Assembly: GCA_049323835.1 (NCBI GenBank)
Contig: JBMOOJ010000104.1
Location: 9,692 to 73,691, forward strand
Source of the DNA: Pseudomonadota bacterium
GTDB lineage: Bacteria > Pseudomonadota > Alphaproteobacteria > Rhizobiales > Xanthobacteraceae
Length of the DNA stretch: 64,000 nucleotides
Direction: 5' to 3'
The stretch's first letter is position 1. Each line of letters opens with the position of its first letter. Positions 4,557-56,349 of this stretch are shown here, piece after piece. Under the pieces are notes generated by a model. It had not been told where the DNA came from and searched no databases. It saw nothing but the letters and a program-made list of their open reading frames with translations. The position numbers and the translations under genes were made by a program.

Positions 4557-4576
4557 GCAACACTCCCCAAAGCAAT

Positions 4577-4598: not shown

Positions 4599-4622
4599 AG
4601 GACAAGGCGGGCACTGCGCGGG

Positions 4623-36385: not shown

Positions 36386-38293
36386 ATGCTGGATACGACG
36401 AACGCCAAATCCTCTCCCGACCAGCTTCGCGCCGGTCTCGACGCCGCCGATCCGGCGACGCTCATGCTCGTGCTGGTGCATCTCACCGGCGAACGCGAAT
36501 GGCTGGAGCGCGCGCGTCCGCACCTGCGTGGACCGATGAGCTATCAGGAGTTCATGCCGCAGGAACTGCGCCGCGCGATCCGCGACCGGCTTTACGGGGT
36601 TCTCTCGCAAGGCGGCCCCTTCGCAGCCGAACCCGACGACGCGCTGCTGCGCGAGATGATGTCGGTCGCGGCCGGCGAGCCGATGAGCGAAGACTACATT
36701 GCGATGATGCGCGAGGACCTGACCCTCGACACCCTCGACTCCCGCGCCATGAAGTGGCGCAACGAACCGGGCCGCGACGCAAAGCAGGCTTGCGACGTAC
36801 TGATCATCGGCGCCGGCATGTCCGGCATCTATGCCGGCATTCAACTTCAGCAGGCCGGCATTCCGTTTCGCATCTTCGAGAAGAACGAGGCGGTCGGCGG
36901 CACCTGGTTCGAAAACACCTATCCCGGCTGTGGCGTCGACACGCCGAACCACTTCTACTCGTTCGCGTTCGAACCGAACCATGAATGGTCGCACTTCTTC
37001 GCCAAACGCAAGGAGCTGTGGAGCTACTTCGAGCGCGTAGCCGACAAATATGACCTGCGCAAGCACATCGCTTTCCGCACCGAAGTCATCGAGGCCGCCT
37101 TCGATGAGGCAGCGGCGCGCTGGCATGTCACCGTGCGGAATCCGGACGGCAGCATCGCGACGCATACCGCGCGCATCCTCGTGTCCGCCGCCGGCATCCT
37201 CAACCGGCCACGCCTGCCGGACATTCCCGGACGCGACAGCTTCAAGGGTCCGGCATTCCACACCGCCGAATGGAACAAGAGTTTCGACTGGCGCGGCAAG
37301 CGTATCGCGCTGATCGGCACCGGCGCGTCAGGGCATCAGGTCGGCCCGGCGATCCAGCCGGACGTCGCGCGGCTGATGATCTTCCAGCGCTCGCCGCACT
37401 GGGCGGTGCCGAACCCGAACTATCACCTCGGCGTCAGCGACGGAAAGAAGTGGGCGCTCGCCAACATTCCGACCTATCTGCGCTGGTATCGCTTCCAGCT
37501 GTTCTGGGGATTCGCCGACGGCCTGCACGCGGCATTACAGCTCGATCCGAACTGGCCGACGCCGGATCGCTCGCTCAACGAAGTGAACGAGCGGCATCGT
37601 ATCTTCATGGAACGGCACATCCGCAAGGAAATCGGCGACCGGCCCGATCTGCTGGCGAAGGCCATTCCGCCGTATCCGCCCTATGGCAAGCGCATCCTGA
37701 TCGACAACCACTGGTACCGCATGCTGACGCGGCCGAACGTCGATCTCATCACCGACAAGATCGCCGCGATCGAACCGAACGGCATCCGCATGGCCGACGG
37801 CACGCTATGGGAGGCCGACGCGCTGGTGCTCGCGACCGGCTTCCTCGCCATGAAGATGCTGCACCCGATGAGGATCATCGGCCGCCAGGGACAAGAAATT
37901 CACGATGTCTGGGGCGATGACGATGCCCGCGCCTATCTCGGCATTACCGTGCCGGATTTCCCGAACTTCTTCATGCTGGTCGGCCCGAACACGGGCCTCG
38001 CCCACGGCGGCAACCAGATCTTCATGGCCGAGTGCCAGGTGAAGCACATGATGCTGGCGCTGCGCGACATGCTGGAGAACGGCCATCGCACGATCGAGCC
38101 GAAGCAGGACGTGCACGATCGTTACAACGAGAAGGTCGACGAACTGCATCGCGGCATGGTGTGGATGCATCCCGGCATGACCAACTGGTATCGCAACCGT
38201 CACGGCCGCGTGTTCGCGATCTCGCCGTGGCGGCTGGTCGAATACTGGCGGATGACGTCGAATTTCGAGCCATCCGACTACGTACTGGGCTAG
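36386..38293 (+). CDS. Type I Baeyer-Villiger monooxygenase with a ~135-aa N-terminal extension (HAPMO-like)
   Basis: GAGMSG at about residue 142, BVMO fingerprint FKGPAFHTAEW, second Rossmann motif GTGASG. 635 aa. Confidence 0.8.
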   Translation: MLDTTNAKSSPDQLRAGLDAADPATLMLVLVHLTGEREWLERARPHLRGPMSYQEFMPQELRRAIRDRLYGVLSQGGPFAAEPDDALLREMMSVAAGEPMSEDYIAMMREDLTLDTLDSRAMKWRNEPGRDAKQACDVLIIGAGMSGIYAGIQLQQAGIPFRIFEKNEAVGGTWFENTYPGCGVDTPNHFYSFAFEPNHEWSHFFAKRKELWSYFERVADKYDLRKHIAFRTEVIEAAFDEAAARWHVTVRNPDGSIATHTARILVSAAGILNRPRLPDIPGRDSFKGPAFHTAEWNKSFDWRGKRIALIGTGASGHQVGPAIQPDVARLMIFQRSPHWAVPNPNYHLGVSDGKKWALANIPTYLRWYRFQLFWGFADGLHAALQLDPNWPTPDRSLNEVNERHRIFMERHIRKEIGDRPDLLAKAIPPYPPYGKRILIDNHWYRMLTRPNVDLITDKIAAIEPNGIRMADGTLWEADALVLATGFLAMKMLHPMRIIGRQGQEIHDVWGDDDARAYLGITVPDFPNFFMLVGPNTGLAHGGNQIFMAECQVKHMMLALRDMLENGHRTIEPKQDVHDRYNEKVDELHRGMVWMHPGMTNWYRNRHGRVFAISPWRLVEYWRMTSNFEPSDYVLG

Positions 38294-38715
38294 CGCCCGC
38301 CTTCATCAGCAGCGGGTGGCCGCGCGCGGAGCGAAGCAATCTTCCAGCTGTCCCCTTCCTTGCGGACGGCAAAGACGATCTCTCCTTCGACATCACGCGG
38401 CGGCGAGTCCGGCGGAATGCAGACGCCGCTCATCCGGTAGGTCGCATCGGCCTCGGCCGCCGCGGCGCCGTGCATCGTCACGCGATGAACCAGCGTGGCC
38501 GTGATCACCGCCTTGCGATAGCTCGGCTGCTGCTTCTGCTCGGTATAGAGCCGGATCGCTTCGTCGATTCCATGCGACGTGCGCCCCGTGGCGCTGATGA
38601 TCTCGATATCATCCGTGAGAAGCGCGCGGTAAGCCACCGGATCGCGGCTGTTCCAGACAATGCGGCGACGTTCGAGCAGGTCGCGGATCGCCCGCTCTTC
38701 CGGAGCGCTCGTCAT
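38290..38715 (-). CDS. NTF2/SnoaL-like (DUF4440-type) small protein
   Basis: 141 aa. ATG 38715 overlaps the upstream stop (ATGA). The pattern ..IRDLLERRRIVWNSRDPVAYRALLTDD.. is typical of SnoaL-like folds. Confidence 0.55.
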   Translation of the reverse strand: MTSAPEERAIRDLLERRRIVWNSRDPVAYRALLTDDIEIISATGRTSHGIDEAIRLYTEQKQQPSYRKAVITATLVHRVTMHGAAAAEADATYRMSGVCIPPDSPPRDVEGEIVFAVRKEGDSWKIASLRARPPAADEGGR

Positions 38716-39065
38716 GATTCGTCCGCGACAAGAATTGTCAGCACCGCATGAAAGCTGATGCTCGCCTTGCCGACCAGCGCGGTGCCGAACACTTTCGCTG
38801 TTCCGCTCGCGTAGCTGCCAGAGAAGCCGCAGCTGACATCGCGGCCGCCGAAAACGAAGTTCGTACCGATCGCCTCCGTATGCTGATGGGTGATCAGCTC
38901 GCCGCTCCACTTGCCGGCCTGACAGGTGTAGGAGCCGGTGTAGTAGAAATAGCTATCGCCGCCGAGGATTGCGCCGTCACGCAGCAAGATCACGCCGGTC
39001 GCGCGTCCCCGCGCGCCGTCGCGCATGTCGATACTGATCGCGTAAAGGCCGTTCCTGATCGGCAA
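38712..39065 (-). CDS. Hypothetical small beta-rich protein (GrlR-like lipocalin family?)
   Basis: The sequence ..GVILLRDGAILGGDSYFYYTGSY.. resembles the GrlR-like family as I remember it. The first codon is TTG, and the nearest in-frame ATG is at 39026. Confidence 0.45.
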   Translation of the reverse strand: MPIRNGLYAISIDMRDGARGRATGVILLRDGAILGGDSYFYYTGSYTCQAGKWSGELITHQHTEAIGTNFVFGGRDVSCGFSGSYASGTAKVFGTALVGKASISFHAVLTILVADES

Positions 39066-39170
39066 GGATGGAGCCTGGTTTCATGACGCGGAGCGGTCGA
39101 GACTTACCGCAAACGTCCGCGCTCGGTCCAGAGCGGCCGGCGCGAGGCAGCGGCGCAACGCGCCGGAATG

Positions 39171-40163
39171 TCAAAGCGTCGGCGTCTTCGTCACCGACAC
39201 GCGGATCGCCGCCCACGGAGCAGCATCGTCGAGCTCGATCCGGCCGCCGCGCATCGACAGGCCGAGCTTCTGCCAAATGCCCGCAAGATCGGGTTCCATC
39301 GGCTTCAGCCCCATCTCGTCATAGAGCCGCGTCATGACGTCGACGCCGACCGCCGCATCCGCCGTTTCCAGCACCTTGCGCAACGACCACGAGCGTACCT
39401 CGTGGTTGCCGCCGGCGGCGAGAACGCCACGCATGGCGTCCTGCAATCCAAAACGGTTGTCGGTGCGCTTGCGGATTTCGAGATCGGCGATCATGCAGAA
39501 GATCGCGCCGCCCCAATAGGTGCGGCCCCAGGTCGGCGTGTGATCGAGTCCGCGATCGCCGCCGCCCGGCATGCCGTTCGGCATCCCGCGCATCATCGAG
39601 CGCCAGACATCTTCCGGTGCGAGCTGTCCCGCCTGCACGCGCGCGATCGGCTCGATATAGACGGCGAGCCCCTCCGACAGCCAGTTGTGCCGCTCGCGCA
39701 GATCGGGCAGCGCCAGATGCACCATCTCGTGCACCATAATCCAGTCGCGCAGCAGATCCGCTTCGCTGGCATCGCTGCCGAGCGTAATGCGAATCGCGCC
39801 GCCGCGATAACCCCATGTGGTGCCGCCCTGCACGCCGCGTCCGTTCACCGGAACGATGAGCAGTTTAACCTTCTTCAGCGGAAACTGTCCGTAGTAGGTC
39901 GAAACGGCTTCCGCGGATTTCCTGACCCAGCCGAGCACCGTCTCCTGCGGCAGCGCGATGCGCCCCGGCGCGAACGCCACCTGAATGGTGCCGCCCCCGG
40001 CCTGAATTTCGGTCTTCGGCAGACGCTCGAATGCGTCGTAAGGCATTCCGACACCGCCGAGATACTCTGACTGTGCGCCCGAATGGGTCGAGAACAGGCC
40101 GATGAGCAAGCCGGCTCCGACCAGCGCCACCGCGACAATGCGCAAACCGCGTGAGCGCATCAT
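39171..40163 (-). CDS. Exported HExxH zinc metallopeptidase (gluzincin, M1-like active-site region)
   Basis: N-terminal signal/TM segment (LRIVAVALVGAGLLIGLF). HEMVH followed by NWLSEGLAVY, resembling the HExxH..W-L-x-E-G motif of clan MA. The start overlaps the upstream stop. Confidence 0.65.
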   Translation of the reverse strand: MMRSRGLRIVAVALVGAGLLIGLFSTHSGAQSEYLGGVGMPYDAFERLPKTEIQAGGGTIQVAFAPGRIALPQETVLGWVRKSAEAVSTYYGQFPLKKVKLLIVPVNGRGVQGGTTWGYRGGAIRITLGSDASEADLLRDWIMVHEMVHLALPDLRERHNWLSEGLAVYIEPIARVQAGQLAPEDVWRSMMRGMPNGMPGGGDRGLDHTPTWGRTYWGGAIFCMIADLEIRKRTDNRFGLQDAMRGVLAAGGNHEVRSWSLRKVLETADAAVGVDVMTRLYDEMGLKPMEPDLAGIWQKLGLSMRGGRIELDDAAPWAAIRVSVTKTPTL

Positions 40164-41011
40164 CTGCCAGTACTCCCGCTGCCGGTTCGGCGCTCCGCAG
40201 AGTCTCCGGACTGCCGCGCCGCGAATTGCTGCGCATGGCCGATGACATCTTCCATCATTGCTGCGAGTAGAACGTCGCCCTTCGCGCGCGTCGCCAGCGT
40301 CGGATCGCCGAAACTGCCGGAGGGACTGTAACTCGGCGACGAGGAATCGCTGCGCGTCAGCGGCCCCAGCACATTGACGCGATCGGCCGGACTGGCTTCA
40401 GCCCGCGCCATCGTCACCACATGCGGTGCGATCGCCAGCATCAGCGAGGTTTCGAGTTCGTCCGCGTGGCTGCCGTGACGCTGCTCGGCGAGCCTGCTTG
40501 CGGCCGCGCGATAACGAGCGCCCTGATGCACGCGCAGATGCAGCACGTCGCTCGGCTTGAATGATGCAAGGGCGCGCTCGGTCGGCGCGATGGTCGAAAT
40601 GCCGGTATCGATCACGATCAGTGCGCGGACACCGGATGCGAGAATGCCTGCCGCGATTTCAGCTATCAGCGATTCATAGACCGGCGCAGAGAGCGAACTG
40701 CTGCCAGGATAATCCACGAACGCCGGATAGTGTCCGTATGCGACCGTCGGCCAGATCAGCGCATCGATCTTCTCGGCGATCCGCGCGGCGAAGAACTCTG
40801 CCTGAATCTGATCCGTGTTCATCGGCAGATGCAAGCCATGCTCCTTGCTGCCTGCGCCGATCGGCAGCAGCGCCACCGCGCCTGTCTTGATCCGGGCCTC
40901 AATCGCATCCCAAGTCATTTTCGCAACAGCATGACGATCGCCATTGACCGAGCCGCGGAACAGACTGGTCAACCCGGACGTCGCGTCTGCAAGGGTGAAC
41001 GGAGCTTTCAT
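40160..41011 (-). CDS. Creatininase-family amidohydrolase/peptidase
   Basis: LLPIGAGSKEHGLHLPMNTD and HADELETS metal-ligand motifs of the creatinine amidohydrolase fold. The start is uncertain (41011 or 40918). Confidence 0.75.
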   Translation of the reverse strand: MKAPFTLADATSGLTSLFRGSVNGDRHAVAKMTWDAIEARIKTGAVALLPIGAGSKEHGLHLPMNTDQIQAEFFAARIAEKIDALIWPTVAYGHYPAFVDYPGSSSLSAPVYESLIAEIAAGILASGVRALIVIDTGISTIAPTERALASFKPSDVLHLRVHQGARYRAAASRLAEQRHGSHADELETSLMLAIAPHVVTMARAEASPADRVNVLGPLTRSDSSSPSYSPSGSFGDPTLATRAKGDVLLAAMMEDVIGHAQQFAARQSGDSAERRTGSGSTGR

Positions 41012-41145
41012 GCGGCCATCGTCATCCGCCAAACATTGTATGCGATTGGACGCGAGACGCACGTGCGCGGCAATTCACATTCCTGTTGCGCGCATGACAA
41101 TTTGGTTAGTTTCGGACGCGATCCGCACGGCGATGCGGCGTGCTG

Positions 41146-41931
41146 CTAGGCGCCGACGGCGACGCCACCAAGCAGGCCGGACGTCACCCAGCCGCGCAGA
41201 TAACCTGCGCCACGGCCGGCGGCGTTGTCCGGATCGTCGTAGGTCGCCAGCATCGAGCACAGTACGCCAAACGGAATGCCGGCGGCAGCCTCGTCCCACA
41301 TCATCGCCTCTTCCACGGTGAGTTCGCGGAACATCGGCGTGTTGTCCTGCCGCCAGACGAGAATGCGGCAGGGTTCGCCGAGCACCTCCGCATCCGGCGG
41401 CGTCTCTTCGTTCTTGAGCGCGATCCAGATGGCGGCTGCGTTGGTCGTGAGATCGAAACGCTTCGCTGTGGAATGCGGCTTGAAGCGCAGGTCGTTCCAG
41501 GACTCAGGCGGCACTGCCGCGATATCCTCGATTGCGACGACGTCACCATCCGTCGCATCGAATACGTCGTTGAGCGCACGCTCGAGTTCGGCGAGTTCGC
41601 AGATCGCGGGGTAGTCCGAATAGGGCTCGGTCGCGCGCAGGAAATCCGGAATGCCGCGCGAGTACCAGCGCAGGTTCGGATGCTCGGACGGCTTCGCCTG
41701 AACATAGGCCTTGCCCATGGCGTCGAACTCGTCGTCGCCGAGATACGTGTGCAGGTATGGATGGTCGTTGCCGATCGCCTCGACAAGGCGCGAGGAGTAA
41801 GCGTAGCGATAGACACCGAACAGGACGTCGCGCTTTTCCTTCGGGCTGTCGAGAATCTCGGCCAGAACGGAATCGTCACCGCTCATGATGCAGCGCTGGA
41901 ACTCGTCCTGAAGCTGCTGAAAGTTCTTCAT
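41146..41931 (-). CDS. bufC: DUF2063 protein, BufC-like partner of the MNIO enzyme
   Basis: 261 aa with the DUF2063 N-terminal pattern (FQ..I..GD....L..I......R..VYRYAYSSRLVEAIGNDHPYLHTYLGDDEFDAMGKAYVQAKPS..LRWY). ATG 41931 overlaps the DUF692 stop (ATGA). Confidence 0.8.
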   Translation of the reverse strand: MKNFQQLQDEFQRCIMSGDDSVLAEILDSPKEKRDVLFGVYRYAYSSRLVEAIGNDHPYLHTYLGDDEFDAMGKAYVQAKPSEHPNLRWYSRGIPDFLRATEPYSDYPAICELAELERALNDVFDATDGDVVAIEDIAAVPPESWNDLRFKPHSTAKRFDLTTNAAAIWIALKNEETPPDAEVLGEPCRILVWRQDNTPMFRELTVEEAMMWDEAAAGIPFGVLCSMLATYDDPDNAAGRGAGYLRGWVTSGLLGGVAVGA

Positions 41932-42866
41932 GCCTGCTGCCGCACCTGCTCCGTCGCCGGCAACACCTCCGCTGCGATGTCGCGCAGCTTCTGGACCTCG
42001 ACCAGAAGCTCGTCGAGCGGTGGGATATTGTCGTCGCGCTCGATAATGGTCGACACCGCACCGAAACGTTTCAGTGCAGCCGCGTACAGGTCCCAGACGT
42101 CGTCGCAGACGGGATGATCGTGCGTATCGACGATGTGCGTATCCATGTGCGTGTGGCCGGCCATATGGAACTGCACCACGCGGTCGCGTGGAATGCCTTC
42201 GAGGAACGTGTGCGGATCGTAGCCGTGATTGAAGGCGCTGACGTAGACATTGTTGACGTCGAACAGCAGCCAGCAGCCTGTGCGCCGGGACAGCTCGCTC
42301 AGAAACTCCCACTCGGTCATGTCGGGGTTCGCGAACTGGACATAGGTCGACACATTCTCAAGCACGATCTCGCGGCCGAGGAAATCCTGCACGAGATTCA
42401 CACGGCTCGCCACGTGATCGAGCGATTCGGTCGTATAGGGAATCGGCAGCAGGTCATGCAGGTTCTTTCCGTGCACGCCGGTCCAGCAGAGATGATCGGA
42501 AACCCATTTCGGTTCGACGCGCCTGGCGAGATCGCGCAGTTCGGTCAGGTAGTCATAGTTCGGCGGCGCAGTCGACGCGATCGAGAGCGACACACCATGC
42601 ATCACCACCGGATACCGCGCGCGGATACGTTCCAGCATCTGCAGCGGCTTGCCGCCGGGGATCATGTAGTTTTCGCTGATGACCTCGAACCAGTCGATCG
42701 GCGGATCGCCGTCGAGGATGTCGTTGTAGTGCTGAGGACGAAGGCCAAGCCCGAAGCCAAGGAATGGCGGCTTGGCGCCGGACAGTTTACTCTCGCTCAG
42801 ACGCGCCGTCTGGCGCGGAGCAGATGAAGCCTTCTCTGCGGTCGCAGTGGCGGCGCTGGACGTCAT
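41928..42866 (-). CDS. bufB: DUF692 / MbnB-like multinuclear non-haem iron oxidase (MNIO), BufB-like
   Basis: 312 aa. Motifs: FLGFGLGLRPQHYNDIL, DWFEVISENYM, VVMHGVSLSIAS, WVSDHLCWTG, LLPIPYT, VLENVSTY and IERDDNIP. GGAGG SD lies before ATG 42866. Confidence 0.85.
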   Translation of the reverse strand: MTSSAATATAEKASSAPRQTARLSESKLSGAKPPFLGFGLGLRPQHYNDILDGDPPIDWFEVISENYMIPGGKPLQMLERIRARYPVVMHGVSLSIASTAPPNYDYLTELRDLARRVEPKWVSDHLCWTGVHGKNLHDLLPIPYTTESLDHVASRVNLVQDFLGREIVLENVSTYVQFANPDMTEWEFLSELSRRTGCWLLFDVNNVYVSAFNHGYDPHTFLEGIPRDRVVQFHMAGHTHMDTHIVDTHDHPVCDDVWDLYAAALKRFGAVSTIIERDDNIPPLDELLVEVQKLRDIAAEVLPATEQVRQQA

Positions 42867-42941
42867 CCGGTGGCCTCCAAAGTCTCGATCGATCGGCGTC
42901 GGAACCGCGATACGATTACGGTTCCTAATTACCACAAAGAG

Positions 42942-42972
42942 AAAAGGACTGGCAGAGGCTGCCAGTCCTTTT
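42942..42972 (-). terminator. Intrinsic terminator/attenuator between precursor copy A and bufB
   Basis: AAAAGGACTGGCAG, loop AGG, CTGCCAGTCCTTTT: a 14-bp stem. On the minus strand it is followed by CTCTTTG. It starts 14 nt after the copy A stop. A second hairpin GGAACCG-N11-CGGTTCC lies at 42901-42925. Confidence 0.5.
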
Positions 42973-42985
42973 CGGAAGAAGACGC

Positions 42986-43243
42986 TTACGACTTCTTGAA
43001 GTTGCCCTTCGCGGCGTCGCACTTGTCCTTCGACATCATCGCAAAGCCCTGACCCTTGCAGGCGTTCTGGCCTTTGCATGCATTCGCGCCGCCCTTGCAG
43101 GCGCCCTGGCCCTTGCAGGCGTTCGCGCCGACGCACTGACCTTCGCCAGCAGCCTGGGCGTTCGCCGAAACAGTCGCGCCAGCGAGGAAGAGAGCAGCAG
43201 CGGCGACGGCGAGCGTCGCACCAGACTTCGAATTGAGCTTCAT
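42986..43243 (-). CDS. bufA: Secreted 6-Cys RiPP precursor, copy A (BufA2-like bufferin precursor)
   Basis: 85 aa: MKLNSKSGATLAVAAAALFLAGATVSANA|QAAGEGQCVGANACKGQGACKGGANACKGQNACKGQGFAMMSKDKCDAAKGNFKKS. GGAGGA SD lies 7 nt upstream. Confidence 0.8.
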   Translation of the reverse strand: MKLNSKSGATLAVAAAALFLAGATVSANAQAAGEGQCVGANACKGQGACKGGANACKGQNACKGQGFAMMSKDKCDAAKGNFKKS

Positions 43244-43373
43244 GGTAATCCTCCAGAGGTTTTCGACAGAAAGAACTGTCGCGATAACAGCTACGGGCGA
43301 ATTCAAGATCGTTTCAGGAATCGGCAGGAAGAAAAATATTCTCGCACCCGCACTTGTCATCGCGACGACAGAC

Positions 43374-43399
43374 GGGGACCGGCTACGCAGCCGGTCCCC
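43374..43399 (-). terminator. Stem-loop downstream of precursor copy B
   Basis: GGGGACCGGCT, loop ACGC, AGCCGGTCCCC: a perfect 11-bp stem, 14 nt after the stop. Confidence 0.45.
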
Positions 43400-43412
43400 G
43401 CTGCGTTCCGGA

Positions 43413-43670
43413 TCAGGACTTCTCGAACTTGCCCTTGACCTTGTCGCACTCGGCCTTGCTGACCGAGGTGAAGCCCTTGCCCTTGCAGGCGTTCTGGCCC
43501 TTGCAGGCGTTCGCACCGCCCTTGCAGGCGCCCTGGCCCTTGCAGGCGTTCGCGCCGACGCAGTGGCCCTTGTCCTGGGCCTGGGCGACCGACGTCATGG
43601 CCGCACCGGCCAGGAACAGGGTCGCAGCGGCAACAGCGATGGTCGCGCCCGATTTCGAATTCAGTTTCAT
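43413..43670 (-). CDS. bufA: Secreted 6-Cys RiPP precursor, copy B
   Basis: 85 aa: MKLNSKSGATIAVAAATLFLAGAAMTSVAQA|QDKGHCVGANACKGQGACKGGANACKGQNACKGKGFTSVSKAECDKVKGKFEKS. GGAGGA SD upstream. Confidence 0.8.
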   Translation of the reverse strand: MKLNSKSGATIAVAAATLFLAGAAMTSVAQAQDKGHCVGANACKGQGACKGGANACKGQNACKGKGFTSVSKAECDKVKGKFEKS

Positions 43671-44046
43671 AACGAGTCCTCCAGAAGACATGATTGACTT
43701 GGATAAGTCACTTGAACTGGACATCGCCGGAGCGGCTTCGCACGCAAATGGATGTGCACGCCGACGCTCAGGCTCAATCGAGGTGCCGTGCAGCATCCAA
43801 GGATGAGAACGGTCACGAGGAGCATTACGCCGGGAGCTGCGTTTGGTTACTTCGGGCTTGAAAATAATTCTTCCGCTACCGCCTGCCGCGAAACGTCATG
43901 CCTGCGGAGAACGGCGATCACGAAAAGGTTGACTTAGCTCGTTGCGGCGTTCCGCCTGGCGCAAGAGCAACAGCTGTCACCTGTCCGCCACAGGCATCTG
44001 ACAGGTACGCTGGAAACAGGCCCGCAAAAACGGCGTAGAAACGGAA

Positions 44047-44073
44047 AGGAGGCCGGCAACTAGCCGGCCTCCT
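44047..44073 (-). terminator. Intrinsic terminator downstream of precursor copy C
   Basis: AGGAGGCCGGC, 5-nt loop, GCCGGCCTCCT. On the minus strand it is followed by TTCCGTTTCTACGCCGTTTTT. Confidence 0.5.
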
Positions 44074-44084
44074 TCGCATCGTTA

Positions 44085-44342
44085 TCAGCTTGCGACGAAC
44101 TTGCCGCCGACTGCGGCGCAGCTCTTCGCATCGGTCAGCGAGAAGCCCTGGCCCTTGCAGGCATTCTGTCCCTTGCAAGCGCTCGCCCCGCCCTTGCAGG
44201 CGCTCTGGCCCTTGCAGGCATTGCCGACCATGCACTTGCCCTTGGCCGCCTGAGCGTTAGCGGTCGAAACGGCAGCACCTGCCAGGAACAGCGCGGCAGC
44301 GGCGACAGCGAGGGTGGCACCCGACTTGGAATTCAGCTTCAT
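44085..44342 (-). CDS. bufA: Secreted 6-Cys RiPP precursor, copy C (most diverged)
   Basis: 85 aa from ATG 44342: MKLNSKSGATLAVAAAALFLAGAAVSTANA|QAAKGKCMVGNACKGQSACKGGASACKGQNACKGQGFSLTDAKSCAAVGGKFVAS. GAGGAG SD upstream. Confidence 0.8.
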   Translation of the reverse strand: MKLNSKSGATLAVAAAALFLAGAAVSTANAQAAKGKCMVGNACKGQSACKGGASACKGQNACKGQGFSLTDAKSCAAVGGKFVAS

Positions 44343-44673
44343 GACGATCTCCTCTGATGTGTTGAGGCGCATGGACGACGGAATTCTTCGGACCGCCCAC
44401 GCACCGTTTGCTTCGGAGATCCCTCCGGCAGGTCAATCAAAAGGAACGCAATGATGCAGTGCGAGCCCGGGGATGAGCCCACGCGCGTTCAAGACGTTCC
44501 CATCGCTCCCACACCTCCCCGGACGAACCATCCGGTGGCGAGATACGAGGCACCTTCCGTTCGGGGTGCAGGACGGCGAAAAAAATCTGCCGGCCGTGGA
44601 GCGGCGGAACGCCGCACTGAAGTATCGGGGCACCTCCAGCGAAATCGTCAACGCAAGATTTGCTTGCAACGCA

Positions 44674-44705
44674 ATATGCCGGATCTCTTGCGAGATCCGG
44701 CATAT
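44674..44705 (-). terminator. Perfect 14-bp palindrome downstream of the DUF255 gene (terminator or operator)
   Basis: ATATGCCGGATCTC, loop TTGC, GAGATCCGGCATAT. It starts 28 nt after the stop at 44733. No clear T tract follows. Confidence 0.4.
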
Positions 44706-44732
44706 CCATATCCTGACGCCGAACAGCTGCAA

Positions 44733-46538
44733 TCACTTCATCGATTGCCGCTGTGGCTTGAGCTTCGCCATCTGCTCGACGGTGTCTTTCAGTTCCTTCG
44801 CGTTGAATGACGGGAAGGAGCAGATTCGGTTGCTGCACGCGAACGCAGCCGCCTGGCCGAGGTCCGGATATTCGACATCCGGGTTCGGCAGTTTGCCTTC
44901 GCGCAGATCGAGCCACTCGAGCCGCTTGTAGCGCGCCGGATAGGCCCGGGCGACGCTGTGCAGATCGCGTGCCTTCGTGTCGTCCTTGCGGCCGACGATC
45001 GTGATATGGGTCGGCTCGACCGCGAGTTCTTCATCGGCGAGCAGCACGCCCGGCAGCGGCCGCACCAGTTCGGCGGTCATGCCGGCGAGATACTTCATCG
45101 CGTGCACCGCATTGTCGTGATATGCCTCGCTGCCGAAATACCGGTCGAGCAGATTGAGGAAGCGCGCGACCTGAATCTGATCTTCCATCAGCTTGGCCGG
45201 CTTCGCGAATACGCCAACCTTGGCTTCGCTGGTCTTTGAGGTAAAGAAGCCGCCGCCGGCCTCGTCCTTGAAGTTGGCGATGACGAAGTCGCCGGCCTTG
45301 CCCGCCGCGGTCAGCCATTCGCGGTTACCTGTCGCGCCATACAGGTCGAGAAACGCCTGCCCCATGGTGGCGGTATCGCCGAGGAACGGGCCGCCGCGAT
45401 CCTTCGCGCCATGCTTGAAGCCGCCATCCGGCAACGAACGGTTGGCGATCACCCAGCGCGCCGCGCGCTCCATCCGCTCGAGCGTCGCCGCATCCTTGGT
45501 GACGCCGTAGTAGGCGGCAAGTCCGCTGATCGCCCAGCCATTTTCACGTGCGTAAAGGTTCTTGTCGATGCGCGGCATGCCAAGCTTGCGGCGCTCCGCG
45601 TCGTTCAGCGCGTAGAAGGCATGGCCATCGACCTCGCGATTGAGATCGGCGTCCTGGCTGACATAGTACGCGCCCTCGGGCCCGAGCATCATCGACGTCA
45701 GGTAGCGCTCGATGTCCTTTGCCGCCTTCAGGTACTTCGGGTCGTTCCAGCGCGCATATGCCTGGCTGTACTGACGCAGATACTGACCCTGGAACGACAT
45801 GATCTTTTCGAAGTGCGCCTTCTGCCAGGAGCCGGCTTCGGAGTATTGATAGACGCCGCCCCACACCGGATCGATCAGCGCGATCGCGGCATCGAGCGTC
45901 TGGCGTGCGCGCTTGACCGCTTGCGCATCCCCCGCTTCCGCACGCAGCATCGCATAGTCAAAGCTGTCGGCGTCGATGTACTTCTGGTTTTCGCCCCAGG
46001 CGCCGATCTTGTCCTCATAGGATTCGTCGTAGCGCTTGATCAGCGCCTCGCGCTTCTCCTTCGAGAGGAACTTCTCCTTGGCCGGCTCGACAGCGAACGC
46101 CTGCCCGATCGACGGGCCCGGCGTCGGATCGTCGATCACCGCTTGCAGGATCGACGCCATCCGCTCCGGCTCGATGTAGCCTCGGAATTTCGCGATCTCG
46201 TTGCCGTCCGGCCCAAAGATGATGGTCGCGGGCCAGCCCCAGTCGCCGTAACGGCTGGAGAGATCCGGATTGGCGTCCTGATCGGCACGGACCGGAATGT
46301 ATTTCGCAGCGAGCAGCTCGTTGACCTTCTTGTCCGCGTAGGTGGTTTTGTGCATCACATGGCACCAGTGACACCACACCGCCTCCATATCGAGGATGAC
46401 GAATCGCTTCTCCGCCGTCGCCTTGGTGAAGATATCCTCACTCCATTCGCTCCATTTGACGCCGCCCTCGTCGGCGGCGAAGGCAGGCAAAGCGAACAGC
46501 GCGGCGATGGCGAGTGCCAGGACCCGGACGAACTTCAT
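44733..46538 (-). CDS. Secreted thioredoxin-fold DUF255 (YyaL-like) protein
   Basis: Signal peptide MKFVRVLALAIAALFALPAFA. CxxC in the DUF255 context (DMEAVWCHWCHVMHK). Long alpha/alpha-toroid-like C-terminal domain. 601 aa. Confidence 0.8.
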   Translation of the reverse strand: MKFVRVLALAIAALFALPAFAADEGGVKWSEWSEDIFTKATAEKRFVILDMEAVWCHWCHVMHKTTYADKKVNELLAAKYIPVRADQDANPDLSSRYGDWGWPATIIFGPDGNEIAKFRGYIEPERMASILQAVIDDPTPGPSIGQAFAVEPAKEKFLSKEKREALIKRYDESYEDKIGAWGENQKYIDADSFDYAMLRAEAGDAQAVKRARQTLDAAIALIDPVWGGVYQYSEAGSWQKAHFEKIMSFQGQYLRQYSQAYARWNDPKYLKAAKDIERYLTSMMLGPEGAYYVSQDADLNREVDGHAFYALNDAERRKLGMPRIDKNLYARENGWAISGLAAYYGVTKDAATLERMERAARWVIANRSLPDGGFKHGAKDRGGPFLGDTATMGQAFLDLYGATGNREWLTAAGKAGDFVIANFKDEAGGGFFTSKTSEAKVGVFAKPAKLMEDQIQVARFLNLLDRYFGSEAYHDNAVHAMKYLAGMTAELVRPLPGVLLADEELAVEPTHITIVGRKDDTKARDLHSVARAYPARYKRLEWLDLREGKLPNPDVEYPDLGQAAAFACSNRICSFPSFNAKELKDTVEQMAKLKPQRQSMK

Positions 46539-46740
46539 GGGAATTCCCCTTGATGATCCACGTTAAAGTCACGTGGGATGCGAGCAGAGCGATGCCGGAA
46601 ATACGGGCCACGCTCCGATCCGGCTCAGGGGGACAGAAGGGTCACGCAAACGTGAGGCTGCTGCGCCACCCGCGCAAGGCCGAGCGTCCGGACTACGCCG
46701 GACGCGCGTCAAGCTCTGCGCACCGGAGCAGTCGCGATGC

Positions 46741-47229
46741 CTATTTTCCGCTCTCGTTACGCCCGCTGCTGCGCAACAGCAGGTAATCGAGCGACACCTT
46801 GCCGGGGCCAGCGACGGCGAGCCAGAAGAACACCGCCATGTAGGTGAACTCCTCGAAGCCCAGCAGGATATCGAGCGAGCTCTCGCCGGCCGAGTAGGAC
46901 TTCATCCAGTCACCGAATTTCGCCACCTTGACCGCAACGATCATGACGAAGGCGAGTTGCGCCGCGAAGATGCGCGTGAACAGGCCAAGGATCAGGGCGA
47001 TGCCGCCGAAAAACTCGACGCCGGACGCGAACGGCGTAAGAAGAGCGGGGAACGGAATGCCCCACTCGGTGAAGTTCTGGATCATCACCGGCAGGTTGTT
47101 GAGCTTCTGCCAACCCGTCCACATGAAGACGTAGCCTACCACGAGACGCGCGTACAAAGGCCCGGCCCACGAAAAATGCGCGGCGATCCGGGCAGGCAGG
47201 GCAATCAGCAGGTTAACGAGAAAATCCAT
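46741..47229 (-). CDS. DoxX-family membrane protein
   Basis: 162 aa from ATG 47229, 4 TM segments, DoxX-like sequence (..LVVGYVFMWTGWQKL..GGIALILGLFTRI..). Confidence 0.8.
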   Translation of the reverse strand: MDFLVNLLIALPARIAAHFSWAGPLYARLVVGYVFMWTGWQKLNNLPVMIQNFTEWGIPFPALLTPFASGVEFFGGIALILGLFTRIFAAQLAFVMIVAVKVAKFGDWMKSYSAGESSLDILLGFEEFTYMAVFFWLAVAGPGKVSLDYLLLRSSGRNESGK

Positions 47230-47263
47230 GATACCCCCAGATGCTTGTCCCTCAGGCGCCAAA

Positions 47264-47319
47264 CTTCAAACGACCAAGGTTTCAAACCACTAAAACCTTC
47301 AACTACCAAGGCTTCAAAC
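47264..47319. promoter_or_regulatory. Four direct repeats (C/T)TTCAA(A)C with ~16-nt period upstream of doxX
   Basis: CTTCAAAC at 47264, TTTCAAAC at 47280, CTTCAAC at 47297, CTTCAAAC at 47312. The longer unit ACCAAGG(T/C)TTCAAAC occurs at 47273-47287 and 47305-47319. The array lies 35-90 nt upstream of the doxX ATG. Confidence 0.3.
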
Positions 47320-47381
47320 GCTCGGCGTGACACTACGGCTCACGAGGTATTCGAACGGAAACGGATGGATGTTACGGCCGC

Positions 47382-48116
47382 CTATCCGAAATTTGCCAGC
47401 GCCGGGAAGGTTTCCAGCAGCCAGATGCTCATGCTGGTGATCGAGCCGGTGAGGAACGCGATGCCCGTTACAACCATCAGGACACCCATCGCCCGCTCGA
47501 CATTGTGCAGTTGCCGTTTCATGCGGTTGAAGGCGGCCGAGAAACGATCAATCGCGAACGCGGCAATGAGGAACGGAATGCCGAGGCCCGCCGAATAAAC
47601 CGCGAGCAGCCACGCGCCCTTTGTAACGGTCGCATCGGCGGCGGCAACCGACAGGATCGCGGCGAGGATCGGCCCGATGCACGGCGTCCAGCCGAAGGCG
47701 AACGCAAGTCCCATGACATAAGAACCGGTGTAGCCAACCGGCTTCGACATCGTCGCGCGCCCTTCCCTCATCAGAAACGCAAAGCGCGTCAGCCCGAGGA
47801 AGTGCAGGCCCATCAAGATAATGAGAACGCCGGCGACGATCGAGAACTGCGCGGAATAGGCGCGGATGAAGCCGCCGATGTAGCTCGCGCTGGCGCCGAG
47901 GGCGACGAACACCGTCGAGAAGCCGAGCACGAAGCAGAGCGCCGAGAACATGATGGCGCTCTTCGAGGCCGACGAGATATCCTCGTTGTTCGCGTTGTTC
48001 AGCGTCGCGCCGGTGAGGTAGATCAGATATGGCGGCACCAGCGGTAGCACGCAGGGCGACAGGAAGCTGATAATTCCGGCGAGGAACGCGGCGGGGACCG
48101 AGATATCGCTACCCAT
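47382..48116 (-). CDS. ccdA: CcdA/DsbD-family thiol-disulfide electron transporter (cytochrome c biogenesis protein transmembrane region)
   Basis: AAFLAGIISFLSPCVLPLVPPYL and FAFGWTPCIGPILAAIL: the two conserved membrane Cys motifs of the family. Confidence 0.8.
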   Translation of the reverse strand: MGSDISVPAAFLAGIISFLSPCVLPLVPPYLIYLTGATLNNANNEDISSASKSAIMFSALCFVLGFSTVFVALGASASYIGGFIRAYSAQFSIVAGVLIILMGLHFLGLTRFAFLMREGRATMSKPVGYTGSYVMGLAFAFGWTPCIGPILAAILSVAAADATVTKGAWLLAVYSAGLGIPFLIAAFAIDRFSAAFNRMKRQLHNVERAMGVLMVVTGIAFLTGSITSMSIWLLETFPALANFG

Positions 48117-48352
48117 GGGACATCTGACCTTCAAACTGCGCGCCGCGGGCGCGGCGGAAAACATGGCAATCAGCGTAATCTACGAACTCGGCCGCTCGCG
48201 GTTTCGAAACCCGGGATCGAACTTACCAGCGCTAAGGACCGCAAGGACAAGCTTGGCTTCGGGGGCAGCGATACATACGTTAGCCTAAGCTGGCCACCCA
48301 GAATCTCGCCGCTTCCCCGTCATATCAGTCACTTGAAGTTGAAAAGCCGTTT

Positions 48353-50437
48353 ATGATCCGCCTCTCGCCACCCTCCGCGCCGCGCCGTCCGCATCAATTC
48401 ATCGCTCATGGCGTCACCGTCACCGACGACTATGCTTGGTTAAAAGATCCGGATTGGCAGAAGGTGCTGCGCGAGCCCGCGCTGCTCGACGCCGATATCC
48501 GCGCCTATCTCGAAGCAGAGAACGCATTTGCAGAGCAGCTGCTCGGTCATACGAACGCCCTGCAGAAGACGCTCGTCGCGGAGATGCGCGGCCGCGTCAA
48601 GGAGGACGACTCGAGCGTTCCCTCCCCCGATGGCGCATTCGCTTACTTCAGCAAGTATCGGGAGGGCGGCCAGCATCCGCTGATCGGCCGCATGGCGCGC
48701 GCCGGCGGCAGCGAGACGTTCATCCTCGACGGCGACGAACTCGCGAAACACAGCGACTACTTCCAGCTGCGTGGCTCGCGGCATTCGCCGGACCACGCGC
48801 TGCATGCCTGGAGCAGCGACACCAAGGGATCGGAATACTTCACCATCCGCGTGCGCGACTGGGCAACGGGCAACGACCTCGACGACAGCATCGAGGAAAC
48901 CGATGGCGCTGTGGTCTGGGCCGCAGACTCGAAGTCCTTCTACTACGTCAAGCTCGATGATAATCACCGGCCGCTGAAGGTCTATCGCCATCGCCTCGGC
49001 ACCGCGCAGGTGGACGACATTCTTGTCTACGAGGAAAAGGATTCAGGCTGGTTCACCCATATTCATGAAAGCGCCAGCGGCCGCTTCTGCGTCATCGCCG
49101 GCGGCGATCACGAAACGTCCGAGCAACGGCTGATCGACCTGGCCGATAGCAACGCGATACCGCACCTCGTCGCCGAACGCGAGGACGGCGTACAGTACTC
49201 GGCTGCCGACCGCGGCGATCAGCTCTATATCCTGACCAATGCTGACAAGGCGATCGACTTCAAGATCGTGACAGCGCCGCTCGCTGCGCCCGGGCGCGAG
49301 AACTGGTGTGATCTGATCCCGCATCGCGCGGGCGTCTTCGTGCTCGACTTCGAGCTTTTCGCCAATCACCTGGTGCGGCTCGAGCGCAAGGACGCCCTGC
49401 CCTCGATCGTCATCCGCGACCTGCGGACGAGCGATGAGCACGCGATCGCCTTCGACGAGGCTGCGTATTCGCTCGACACGCTCGGCAGCTACGAGTTCGA
49501 CACGACGAACCTGCGCTTCTCGTACTCATCAATGACGACGCCGTCGGAAGTCTTCGACTACGACATGGAGAAGCGCACGCGCATTCTGCGCAAACGTCAG
49601 GAAATTCCGTCCGGCCACAACCCCGCGGACTACGTCACTACGCGCATCCTCGCCACGGCGCATGACGGCGCACAGGTGCCGGTCTCAATTCTCTATCACA
49701 GGACAACCACGATCGACGGAAGCGCGCCGCTGTTGCTGTACGGCTACGGCTCCTATGGCCACGCCATGCCGGCGTCGTTCTCATCCAACCGGCTGTCGCT
49801 GGTCGATCGCGGCTTCGTCTACGCTATCGCGCACATCCGCGGCGGCTCCGACAAGGGTTGGAGCTGGTATCTCGACGGCAAGCGCGAGAAGAAGACCAAC
49901 ACCTTCGACGATTTCGCCGCCGCAGGCCGCGCGCTGATCGAGAAGAAATACACCTCGCCGAAGAAGATCGTCGGCCACGGCGGCAGCGCCGGCGGCATGC
50001 TGATGGGTGCGGTTGCCAATCGCGCGGGCGACTTGTTCGGCGGCATCGTCGCCGAGGTGCCGTTCGTCGACGTGCTCAACACGATGATGGACGATACCTT
50101 GCCGCTGACGCCACCGGAGTGGCCCGAGTGGGGTAATCCGATCACCGACGAAGCCGCGTTCAAGACGATCCTGTCGTACTCGCCTTACGACAACGTCGAG
50201 GCGAAATCCTATCCGGCGATCCTGGCGATGGGCGGCCTCACCGATCCGCGCGTGACGTATTGGGAGCCGGCGAAGTGGGTGGCGCGGCTGCGCGCGACCA
50301 TGACCGGCGGCGGGCCGGTCGTGCTGCGAACCAACATGGGCGCAGGCCACGGCGGCGCATCCGGCCGCTTCAACCGGCTGGACGAAGTCGCGATCGTCTA
50401 TGCGTTCGCACTATGGGCAGTGGGGCTGGTGAAATAA
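48353..50437 (+). CDS. ptrB: S9A prolyl oligopeptidase-family protease II (oligopeptidase B)
   Basis: 694 aa. N-terminal beta-propeller region (DDYAWLKD..), catalytic GGSAGG motif and a C-terminal hydrolase domain. Confidence 0.85.
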   Translation: MIRLSPPSAPRRPHQFIAHGVTVTDDYAWLKDPDWQKVLREPALLDADIRAYLEAENAFAEQLLGHTNALQKTLVAEMRGRVKEDDSSVPSPDGAFAYFSKYREGGQHPLIGRMARAGGSETFILDGDELAKHSDYFQLRGSRHSPDHALHAWSSDTKGSEYFTIRVRDWATGNDLDDSIEETDGAVVWAADSKSFYYVKLDDNHRPLKVYRHRLGTAQVDDILVYEEKDSGWFTHIHESASGRFCVIAGGDHETSEQRLIDLADSNAIPHLVAEREDGVQYSAADRGDQLYILTNADKAIDFKIVTAPLAAPGRENWCDLIPHRAGVFVLDFELFANHLVRLERKDALPSIVIRDLRTSDEHAIAFDEAAYSLDTLGSYEFDTTNLRFSYSSMTTPSEVFDYDMEKRTRILRKRQEIPSGHNPADYVTTRILATAHDGAQVPVSILYHRTTTIDGSAPLLLYGYGSYGHAMPASFSSNRLSLVDRGFVYAIAHIRGGSDKGWSWYLDGKREKKTNTFDDFAAAGRALIEKKYTSPKKIVGHGGSAGGMLMGAVANRAGDLFGGIVAEVPFVDVLNTMMDDTLPLTPPEWPEWGNPITDEAAFKTILSYSPYDNVEAKSYPAILAMGGLTDPRVTYWEPAKWVARLRATMTGGGPVVLRTNMGAGHGGASGRFNRLDEVAIVYAFALWAVGLVK

Positions 50438-53500: not shown

Positions 53501-53773
53501 GATGATCTCAACCTGCCCCAGCGAGTCGCTGGTGGATTCGAAGTTGAGAATGCCGCTGGCGCCGTTGAGCTCTTCCTCGATCAGGCGCGTGACGCTGTTG
53601 TAGAGGTTTTCAGGCGACGCGCCGGGATAGCTCGTCGAGATCGAAATCGACGGCGGTGCGATGATCGGATACTGCGCGATCGGCAGTTGCGGAATCGCGA
53701 TCGCGCCAAGCAGACAGATAAAGAGAGCCACGACCCATGCGAACACGGGCCGGTCGATGAAGAAACCCGGCAT
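50594..53773 (-). CDS. RND multidrug efflux permease (HAE1, AcrB/MexB-like)
   Basis: 1059 aa. N-terminus MPGFFIDRPVFAWVVALFICLLGAIAIPQLPIAQYP is typical of AcrB. Confidence 0.9.
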   Translation of the reverse strand: MPGFFIDRPVFAWVVALFICLLGAIAIPQLPIAQYPIIAPPSISISTSYPGASPENLYNSVTRLIEEELNGASGILNFESTSDSLGQVEIIANFVPGTDSNLASVEVQNRIKRVEARLPRAVIQQGILVEEASSAVLQIVTLKSTDKSLDEVGLGDFMIRNVLGEIRRIPGVGRATLFSTERSLRIWIDPAKLVGYNLNADDVTKAIAAQNAQVASGSVGAEPSTKDQRISALVLVKGQLSSTDDFGAIVLRANADGSTVRLRDVARIEIGGLGYQFTTRLNGEPTAGLSVLLSPTGNALATARAVEAKMQELSKFFPANIAYEIPYNITPVVQASINKVLMTLLEAVGLVFVVMFLFLQNIRYTLIPTIVVPVALLGTCLMLLLLGYSINILTMFGMVLAIGIIVDDAIVVVENVERIMAEEGLPPKEATRKAMTQITSAIVGITLVLIAVFVPMAFFPGSVGIIYRQFSITMASAIGFSALMALSLTPALCATLLKPVEAGHGHAKKGFFGLFNRVLDGIKDRYSGIVGWSILRTGRLLAIYAAIVIAMGWAFVRLPGGFLPVDDQGFITVDVQTPSDSSYSRTANAVEAVEKYLLGRSGIDEVTFLTGFSFLGQGINTAQAFVTLKDWSERGPRDSAAAIVDDANRKLSSVRDAKVNAQQPPPIDNLGNSSGFSFRLQDRGQKGYPALMAAKDQLIAAANKSPILQNVFVEGLPPAPQVQLNVDREKASALGVTFEEINNTISTNLGSNYVNDFPNRGRMQRVIVQSEAVARMNADDILSYNVKNSRGQLVPLASVATVEWTVGPTQIVGFNYYPSVRISGVARAGFTSGDAIAEMEKLAGQLPRGFGYEWTGQSLQEKLSGSQAPFLLALSALVVFLCLAALYESWTIPVAVLMTVPLGILGAVIAAMLRGLPNDVYFTVGLITIIGLAAKDAILIIEFAKDLRAQGKPILEATAEACHLRFRPILMTGFAFVSGVVPMVIATGAGAASQQAIGTVVMGGMIAVVVLALLMVPVFFVGVLKAFSKQAREEAGTAMSANKQVLAPQPAGEAKPHSL

Positions 53774-53775
53774 CG

Positions 53776-56341: not shown

Positions 56342-56349
56342 CGCTGACC

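Follow-up and report, generated by a model that had tools for sequence, protein, structure and literature searches.

A probable Buf2-type bufferin cluster with three diverged precursor genes and a conserved gene neighbourhood in an uncultured Hyphomicrobiales-like bacterium

The DNA analysed here is a 64,000-nt stretch (the window; positions 9,692 to 73,691 of the 74.9-kb contig JBMOOJ010000104.1) from the metagenome-assembled genome (MAG) of an uncultured Hyphomicrobiales-like bacterium. It carries five genes in single-strand order, namely three small precursor genes (bufA2-1, bufA2-2, and bufA2-3), bufB for a multinuclear non-haem iron oxidase (MNIO), and bufC for its DUF2063 partner, which probably constitute a Buf2-type bufferin cluster. 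They lie within a longer block on the same strand, in the order ccdA, doxX, a DUF255 thioredoxin gene, bufA2-1 to bufA2-3, bufB, bufC, a creatininase-like gene, and a gene for a 330-aa protein with an HExxH motif; all genes and features described below are on the minus strand. We compared this region with 80 related loci (labelled L with a number). The order of the core genes is repeated there, and precursor-MNIO-DUF2063 was kept in all 70 loci with a detectable precursor. The bufferin locus is real and fairly ordinary, and is unusual only in its three precursor genes and its conserved set of neighbouring genes.

The genes bufA2-1 (44085-44342), bufA2-2 (43413-43670), and bufA2-3 (42986-43243) each encode an 85-aa, six-Cys precursor that is predicted to be secreted. 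A first-pass annotation of this DNA had reported these open reading frames (ORFs) with their Shine-Dalgarno sequences, their six-Cys spacing, and four ACKG units, all of which were confirmed. GAGGAG or GGAGGA stands 6-8 nt 5' of each start codon, and the N-terminus MKLNSKSGAT is common to the three proteins. Two Lys residues in the n-region, a 12-residue hydrophobic core (LAVAAAALFLAG; mean Kyte-Doolittle value 2.25-2.40), A-x-A sites (ANA or AQA) C-terminal to the core at about residues 28-31, and the coverage of the family model described below together predict a Sec signal peptide on each precursor, as had been proposed. Cys residues 37, 43, 49, 56, 62, and 75 are at identical positions in the three proteins (C-x5-C-x5-C-x6-C-x5-C-x12-C), and the four central ones (C43, C49, C56, and C62) each lie within an ACKG unit. 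Six-frame translation of the entire window yielded this spacing exactly three times, each time in one of these ORFs, and the six-Cys pattern with central Cys-Lys motifs was also found in 37 related precursors.

All three precursors exceeded the 60-bit cut-off of NF050166, the NCBIfam equivalog model "BufA2 family periplasmic bufferin-type metallophore", with 73.5 bits for bufA2-1, 82.0 bits for bufA2-2, and 78.9 bits for bufA2-3 (E 1e-20 to 3e-23; model spanning residues 8-82). Pfam gave nothing above threshold for them; DUF2282 was not matched, and the sole sub-threshold hit was DUF7640 (21 bits against 28.1). The earlier placement of the precursors in the 6-Cys BufA2 class rather than in DUF2282 was thus upheld. 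A PDB sequence search with a precursor returned no match. The exact sequence of bufA2-2 is present in NCBI as MFZ5733998.1, "hypothetical protein". The exact 85-aa sequences of bufA2-1 and bufA2-3 were not found in the public protein collection; for these two, the depositors' gene caller probably placed the start codon further upstream, as in the 95-aa ORF from 44372.

The number of precursors detected per related locus was zero in 10, one in 46, two in 23, and three in a single locus, L016 from a Hyphomicrobiales MAG. A published survey that collected thousands of Buf2 precursors explicitly noted clusters with tandem precursor genes and counted, in 864 complete genomes, up to four Buf2 precursors per genome (PMC12452194). 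The triple-precursor layout, which the first-pass annotation had put forward as uncharacterised, is therefore not unique. Two paralogue types recur in Bradyrhizobium-like genomes and are kept in about 12 related loci across Hyphomicrobiales: a promoter-distal type, GKCMAGNACKGQSACKG..NSCKGLNACKG.GFS, and a bufB-proximal type, GEG[KH]CVGANACKGQ[SG]ACKGGANACKGQNACKGQGF. The product of bufA2-1 grouped with the promoter-distal precursors of Bradyrhizobium loci; bufA2-2, a divergent paralogue, and bufA2-3 are of the proximal type. The three genes share 69-77% DNA identity with synonymous divergence (dS) of 0.6-1.1 and are thus not recent copies, and their ratios of nonsynonymous to synonymous divergence (dN/dS), 0.10-0.51, indicate that all three are maintained by selection. 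Against orthologues, dN/dS was 0.21-0.23 for bufA2-1, 0.12 for bufA2-2 (compared with L016_7615), and 0.10 for bufA2-3, whose nearest relative is the same L016_7615 at 83% identity. As a separate observation, a Bradyrhizobium MAG locus (L003) has two proximal-type precursor genes 2.5 kb apart (4558-4806 and 7328-7570), one just after doxX and the other just before bufB, with a GTAAC motif at each and the DUF255 gene missing; the block has evidently been rearranged there.

The 312-aa product of bufB (41928-42866) scored 385.2 bits (E 1.3e-115) with NF050167 (MNIO_BufB, "MNIO family bufferin maturase"; cut-off 310) and 376.8 bits with PF05114. Profile search thus agreed with the proposed DUF692/MNIO identity and placed the protein in the bufferin maturase subfamily. 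With the sister models it stayed below the cut-offs (bits/cut-off: HvfB 271/360, ApyH 92.9/400, MbnB 83.5/325, ChrH 39/600). BufB matched PDB entry 3bww at E 1.8e-45, and its motifs VVMHG, SDHL, LENVS, FDVNN, FHMAGH, VDTHDH, and IIERDD align with conserved positions of 3bww, 8hci, and MbnB (7tcr, 7fc0). The conserved His, Glu, Asp, and Asn positions of solved MNIOs are intact in BufB, with residues assigned to iron according to the published structures. At the position of ERDFN in 3bww, which belongs to the Lys-Cys class, BufB has ERDDN. In MNIOs of the Cys-Lys class, the residue corresponding to Phe250 of FonB is replaced by Asp, which has been modelled against the substrate Lys of BufA2 (Gadgil et al., PMC13097082), and BufB fits this rule because it carries Asp at that position. 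The proteins nearest to it, about 80-85% identical, come from Hyphomicrobiales MAGs, Bradyrhizobium, and Methylobacterium.

The reading frame of bufC (41146-41931; 261 aa) overlaps that of bufB by ATGA, and bufC is translationally coupled to bufB through this overlap. Its product is a DUF2063 partner protein (PME1), as had been suggested from the sequence pattern: PF09836 covered N-terminal residues 6-98 with 68.8 bits (cut-off 27.2). The HvfC model gave 17 bits (cut-off 142), and a PDB sequence search with BufC alone returned no match. An RRE-like C-terminal domain, that is, one resembling a precursor-peptide recognition element, is plausible for BufC. In the deposited record, the proteins of this region (MFZ5733995-MFZ5734000) are named "hypothetical protein", "DUF692 domain-containing", or "DNA-binding domain-containing". 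The expectation that routine annotation would yield only such names therefore holds for the deposited record; current NCBIfam models, by contrast, put names on four of the five core genes.

Each precursor gene is followed by a predicted hairpin. The stem-loop after bufA2-1 (44040-44080) has a folding energy of -30.6 kcal/mol and a z score of -4.56, with none of 200 shuffled sequences as stable, and UUUCCGUUUC comes next to it. That after bufA2-2 (43365-43406; -35.9 kcal/mol, z -5.25) is without a clear U tract. Between bufA2-3 and bufB lies an intrinsic-terminator-like hairpin (42941-42973; -26.2 kcal/mol, z -4.88), for which a terminator scan reported 15 pairs and then TCTTTGTGGT. Energies were obtained by RNA folding and z scores by comparison with shuffled sequences. 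The hairpins may keep precursor mRNA in excess over enzyme mRNA, a usual arrangement. A scan of 38500-48500 against Rfam at E up to 1 returned just two sub-threshold hits, at chance level.

Promoter-like motifs of the SigF/EcfF type (extracytoplasmic function [ECF] sigma factor group 16) were found upstream of several genes of the block. The strict pattern GTAAC-N15-18-CG[AT]A had just two matches on both strands of the window (128 kb), both in the cluster and on its coding strand: GTAACC-N15-CGTA at 43826-43850, 180 nt upstream of bufA2-2, and GTAACA-N16-CGAA at 47350-47375, upstream of doxX. They agree with the Caulobacter SigF site GTAACC-N16-CGAA, which was mapped by rapid amplification of 5' cDNA ends (5'-RACE) before the buf1 and buf2 operons (PMC3511200), and with the Bradyrhizobium EcfF consensus GTAAC(g,a)-N14-15-(t,c)CG(t,a) (PMC3420878). 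Among the related loci, the strict motif was kept upstream of doxX in 16, and it preceded 20 of 25 proximal-type and 9 of 12 distal-type precursor genes, against a background of about 0.02 matches per 260 nt in which the conserved sites themselves are counted. The motif 94 nt upstream of bufA2-1 (TTGACC-N15-CGAA, 44412-44436) is degenerate and weak, because two -35 positions deviate from the consensus. The variant 72 nt upstream of bufA2-3 (GAAAC-N15-CGTA, 43292-43315) is suggestive at most, because the relaxed pattern has nine matches in the same 128 kb. Another GAAAC variant (GAAAC-N16-CGTA, 48181-48205) lies upstream of ccdA and is kept in seven loci (L004, L005, L007, L009, L011, L012, and L058). 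A sigma-70 promoter scan of the cluster gave matches no more frequent than in shuffled sequence. From the SigF/EcfF-type motifs we infer, with good support, regulation by a SigF-class sigma factor.

Published data on an EcfF regulon include three adjacent genes of Bradyrhizobium japonicum, bll6527-bsl6528-bll6529, that are annotated as hypothetical or unknown, one of them small (PMC3420878, Table S4). They are strongly up-regulated in the osrA anti-sigma mutant, bll6527 by 78-fold (PMC3420878), and could be a bufferin cluster of that strain.

The Buf2 system of Caulobacter provides the biochemical framework. Its precursor is Sec-exported and has six Cys residues, of which the four central ones each lose 4.03 Da (Leprevost et al., PMC11626156), whereas CysI and CysVI are unmodified and probably disulfide-bonded, giving a total shift of -18 Da (PMC11626156). 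The product has an absorbance maximum near 305 nm; copper induces the buf genes, which in turn protect against the metal (PMC11626156). Minor species at -12 and -20 Da were ascribed to labile disulfides between modified residues (Leprevost et al., PMC11626156). In the Buf1 system of the same organism, BufB1 and BufC1 are necessary and sufficient for modification of Buf1, and the signal peptide is dispensable for it (PMC11626156). More than 24,000 MNIO-DUF2063 loci have been catalogued, about 1,500 of them with Cys-Lys precursors, and the class name captophorins has been proposed; NACKG is among the common 5-mer motifs (Gadgil et al., PMC13097082). The earlier dispute between thiooxazole and oxazolone-thioamide structures has meanwhile been resolved, with 5-thiooxazole accepted for oxazolin too.

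Taken with this background, the gene identities, family membership, intact catalytic motifs, purifying selection on the three paralogues, hairpins, and conserved promoter-like motifs at the locus argue for a Buf2-type bufferin cluster, that is, a captophorin cluster of the Cys-Lys class, to which we assign a probability of about 0.88. Its chemistry, disulfide, export, copper binding, and sigma-factor dependence are read across by analogy with Caulobacter Buf2 and related systems. The three paralogous precursors would be translated in the cytoplasm, where BufB, as a multi-iron oxidase, and BufC, as its DUF2063/RRE-like partner, would carry out an O2-dependent four-electron oxidation of C43, C49, C56, and C62, converting each to a 5-thiooxazole. 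Sec export and then signal peptidase cleavage after A-x-A would follow, and the C37-C75 disulfide would form. The product of about 55 residues would be retained in the periplasm, where excess copper would be sequestered through the thiooxazole thiolates. A SigF/EcfF-type ECF sigma factor would probably drive separate promoters before doxX and the precursor genes, and the hairpin after each precursor gene would hold precursor transcripts above bufBC transcripts.

Several observations weigh against this reading. The top PDB match of a 19-orthologue BufC profile, to PME1 of N. gonorrhoeae (3dee), was weak (E 0.037, residues 178-251). No ECF sigma, anti-sigma, or NrsF gene was found in the window by non-exhaustive GC3-based gene calling (GC content at third codon positions) and Pfam search of size-appropriate genes. 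The presence of only a degenerate motif before bufA2-1 and only a relaxed variant before bufA2-3 counts against it as well. Copper specificity is extrapolated: some bufferin fusions, with MerC, point to mercury (PMC12452194), and Caulobacter SigF responds also to chromium and cadmium (PMC3511200).

These last points lead to the rival explanation that survives best, in which the locus is a bufferin cluster with a main target other than copper, its paralogues serving cadmium, mercury, gold, chromium-related stress, or redox or HOCl-type stress. We consider this unlikely, at something like one chance in five. Besides the existence of MerC-bufferin fusions (PMC12452194) and the response of Caulobacter SigF targets to chromate and cadmium (PMC3511200), it can draw on the induction of the Bradyrhizobium EcfF regulon by H2O2 and singlet oxygen. 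It can also draw on the paralogues themselves: sub-functionalisation fits them better than dosage, because they are old (dS 0.6-1.1) and form two conserved types with different inter-Cys residues. However, the four modified-Cys motifs are nearly identical across the three window paralogues, all MNIO-DUF2063 products characterised so far bind copper, and in Caulobacter copper induced the bufA1 and bufA2 reporters, but iron, zinc, and manganese did not (PMC11626156).

Less probable still is an array that is active only in part, with bufA2-2, the gene behind the strict motif, at work and bufA2-1, bufA2-3, or both poorly expressed or decaying. The two mismatches in the -35 element of bufA2-1 and the relaxed GAAAC variant with short spacing of bufA2-3 would agree with this, and the strong hairpins after each precursor gene could block read-through. 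Yet none of the three precursor frames is interrupted, each has a Shine-Dalgarno sequence, the Cys positions are the same in all of them, all three exceed the NF050166 equivalog cut-off, and all are under purifying selection against orthologues (dN/dS 0.10-0.23). It is very improbable that the small proteins are unmodified Cys-rich periplasmic metal or redox proteins and that the DUF692/DUF2063 pair works on something else. Elsewhere, a considerable fraction of bufferin precursors is indeed encoded apart from any MNIO gene (PMC12452194), but here the gene order was constant in every precursor-bearing related locus (70/70), in the characterised homologue BufB and BufC are both required and together suffice for modification (PMC11626156), and BufB of the window has the Asp for which contact with the substrate Lys of Cys-Lys motifs is predicted. 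Finally, although many spurious overlapping ORFs occur on both strands of the region, chance open frames in GC-rich DNA are refuted as an explanation of the three small ORFs by E values of 1e-20 to 3e-23 against a curated family model, orthologues kept in dozens of genomes, and dN/dS well under 1, and the family-model scores exclude a chance origin for all five ORFs.

The genes of the block on either side of this Buf2-type cluster are, apart from doxX, candidate accessory genes. About 15 alphaproteobacterial loci hold part or all of the block from ccdA to the HExxH gene. At its upstream end, ccdA (47382-48164) encodes a CcdA/DsbD-core membrane electron transporter (PF02683, 60.1 bits) with two conserved Cys motifs, FLSPCVLP and GWTPCIGP; translation probably begins at an internal Met near 48116, and the gene was syntenic in 10 loci at 67-76% identity. 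The adjacent doxX (46741-47262) encodes a BufD/HvfX-like membrane protein (PF07681, 71.7 bits) that scored 69.3 bits with NF050144 (HvfX family), under its cut-off of 80. The gene is syntenic in related loci, and DoxX is a known frequent member of bufferin clusters. Next comes a gene for a 601-aa DUF255/DsbH-type thioredoxin with a WCHWC motif (44733-46538; PF03190, 78.5 bits), which is predicted to be secreted from its N-terminal signal-like sequence, MKFVRVLALAIAALFALPAFA. Several thioredoxin families also matched this protein, and its C-terminal part is alpha/alpha-barrel-like. The gene stands immediately upstream of bufA2 in 17 alphaproteobacterial loci from several families, and the adjacency holds in Methylobacterium L002, in L013 from a Beijerinckiaceae MAG, and in the divergent L008 and L024. 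On the basis of this synteny, a link to the bufferin genes is presumed. Our search of the literature on bacterial DUF255/YyaL proteins found nothing relevant.

Downstream of bufC, 40160-41062 encodes a creatininase-fold, MftE-like amidohydrolase (PF02633, 149.9 bits; start codon uncertain) that scored 84 bits with the mycofactocin peptidase model TIGR03964 (MftE), under the cut-off. This gene was found downstream of bufC in 15 loci and was absent from L002, L003, and L014. It overlaps the following gene by 4 nt (40160-40163), and the two therefore look translationally coupled.

The last gene of the block (39171-40163) encodes the 330-aa HExxH protein, which is predicted to be secreted. It had no Pfam or NCBIfam match even at E 10, and searches against PDB sequences with the protein alone or as a profile gave nothing useful; distant and longer members of its family likewise showed no Pfam domain over the shared region. 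An AlphaFold2 model (predicted local distance difference test [pLDDT] 82.8, predicted template modelling score [pTM] 0.81) had as its top Foldseek match the M61 aminopeptidase 7xyo_A (E 1.7e-8, TM 0.51), and M1 enzymes were matched too, which points to a gluzincin peptidase fold (M61/M1). H145, E146, H149, and E164 are invariant, giving a predicted zinc site with the spacing HExxH-x14-E. In M1 peptidases, the spacing between HExxH and the downstream Glu is x18. The family is large, with more than 7,000 close homologues labelled hypothetical and about 3,200 clusters at 50% identity. The gene adjoins bufC in 17 alphaproteobacterial loci, including the three without the creatininase-like gene, and is the most persistently linked of the neighbourhood genes. 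A 43%-identical copy lies divergent from bufA2 in the gammaproteobacterium Dyella flava (L077). Profile search of the 80 loci revealed no remote copies beyond these, and the association is therefore largely within one lineage; for the neighbourhood in general, it is confined to one order apart from Dyella. In two Bradyrhizobium loci, the M61-like gene is in two fragments (L005, 10385-11457; L007, 10372-11426), which could reflect a frameshift, a pseudogene, or an assembly error.

Two further regions of the window were noted. At 38290-39065, a 117-aa ORF without a family match overlaps, at its end, by ATGA the likely true start (about 38715) of a gene for a DUF4440/SnoaL-like protein; this pair marks the edge of the conserved block, because it has no counterpart in the 80 related loci. 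At 50594-56970, an AcrB-type resistance-nodulation-division (RND) efflux pump of 1059 aa and a membrane-fusion protein containing CusB-like domains are encoded; genes for a zinc-type alcohol dehydrogenase and a TetR regulator come after them.

Thioredoxin, DsbD, DUF255, creatininase, and peptidase neighbours are unmentioned in the main texts and available supplements of two landscape papers (PMC12452194, PMC13097082). One of these surveys admitted unrelated genes only when they were at most 10 bp from a core gene (PMC12452194), and all accessory genes of the window would therefore fall outside it. The neighbours may act on bufferins, or their only ties to them may be a common stress regulon and inherited synteny. 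The DUF255 thioredoxin and CcdA, flanking doxX, look like a periplasmic reductant relay, and their genes are syntenic with Buf2 clusters in several families of Hyphomicrobiales. Speculatively, a CcdA-to-thioredoxin relay could keep the thiooxazole thiols reduced or repair copper-induced mis-oxidation of envelope proteins. A fuller scenario can be drawn, tentative in its parts and doubtful as a whole: electrons would pass from CcdA to the secreted DUF255 thioredoxin, possibly with DoxX, and keep the thiooxazole thiols of several bufferin paralogues reduced and metal-competent, the M61-like peptidase and the creatininase-fold amidohydrolase would trim or recycle the peptides, and the distal and proximal precursor types would differ in metal preference.

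As a bufferin, the locus contributes little that is new: the family, with its chemistry and copper role, is established, and tens of thousands of loci have been catalogued. Its multi-paralogue array and its undescribed neighbourhood are leads rather than findings. In this natural array, a single enzyme pair serves three paralogues of two ancient, conserved types; from it one could learn how an MNIO copes with multiple substrates and whether metal specificity varies among bufferin paralogues. The conserved neighbourhood, possibly missed by surveys, combines a periplasmic thiol-reducing pair with a secreted peptidase-like protein of a family that lacks a model. If the neighbours do act on bufferins, it would address how thiooxazole thiols are kept reduced in an oxidising periplasm and how the peptides are turned over.

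Scs and DsbD/CcdA-thioredoxin relays pair a membrane electron transporter with a periplasmic thioredoxin-fold protein. The likeness to them concerns the candidate accessory genes only, and the thioredoxin of the window, a DUF255 protein of 601 aa, is neither ScsC nor a thioredoxin anchored in the membrane. In B. japonicum, the transporter and thioredoxin pair bll1027-bll1026 is EcfF-controlled together with envelope stress genes (PMC3420878) and is a precedent for a SigF-class regulon with a reductant relay. Orthology of this pair with ccdA-doxX of the window was considered and rejected, as Bll1026 is a membrane-anchored periplasmic thioredoxin and not DoxX (PMC3420878), and no ecfQ lies beside ccdA in the Bradyrhizobium loci compared here; a mere analogy is left.

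Methanobactin biosynthesis (MbnABC) resembles the proposed system in the MNIO fold and in four-electron oxidation of Cys to a copper-binding heterocycle. It differs in forming oxazolone-thioamide rather than thiooxazole, in a partner (MbnC) that is not DUF2063, in a precursor with a leader peptide rather than a Sec signal, and in a product that is a secreted chalkophore for copper uptake. Oxazolin (HvfABCX), fontiphorin, and gonophorin (PMC13097082, PMC11252979) are closer: they likewise depend on MNIO and DUF2063 proteins that form 5-thiooxazoles on secreted Cys-rich peptides, they are DoxX-associated, and their products bind copper. Their repeats are Lys-Cys (EGKCG), whereas those of the window are Cys-Lys (ACKG), and the enzymes of that class have Phe (ERDFN) where BufB of the window, which is under the HvfB cut-off, has Asp (ERDDN). 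FonBC did not process a NACKG substrate (PMC13097082). Bufferin 1/DUF2282 clusters (buf1ABCD; gig operons) share with the proposed system the enzyme pair, export by Sec, and periplasmic copper buffering, and they too often include DoxX, there as a fourth gene; their precursors are DUF2282 proteins with four Cys residues and two thiooxazoles, in contrast to those of the window, which had no DUF2282 match in Pfam.

The closest known system, compared through its published description, is bufferin 2 of Caulobacter vibrioides (buf2ABC, CCNA_02999-03001; PMC11626156). Both have a six-Cys precursor, predicted in the window to be Sec-exported, whose four central Cys residues are those modified in Caulobacter, and in both the precursor is followed by bufB for a BufB-type MNIO and then by bufC for the DUF2063 partner. 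Caulobacter buf2 has a SigF-type promoter, and the window cluster has a matching motif, although no sigF-nrsF pair was found within the window. Unlike Caulobacter buf2 with its one precursor, the window has three diverged precursor genes with a hairpin after each, at least partly served by promoter-like motifs of their own. A doxX gene, which Caulobacter buf2 is without, is present near the window cluster, and conserved CcdA, DUF255-thioredoxin, creatininase-like, and M61-like neighbours are added to it.

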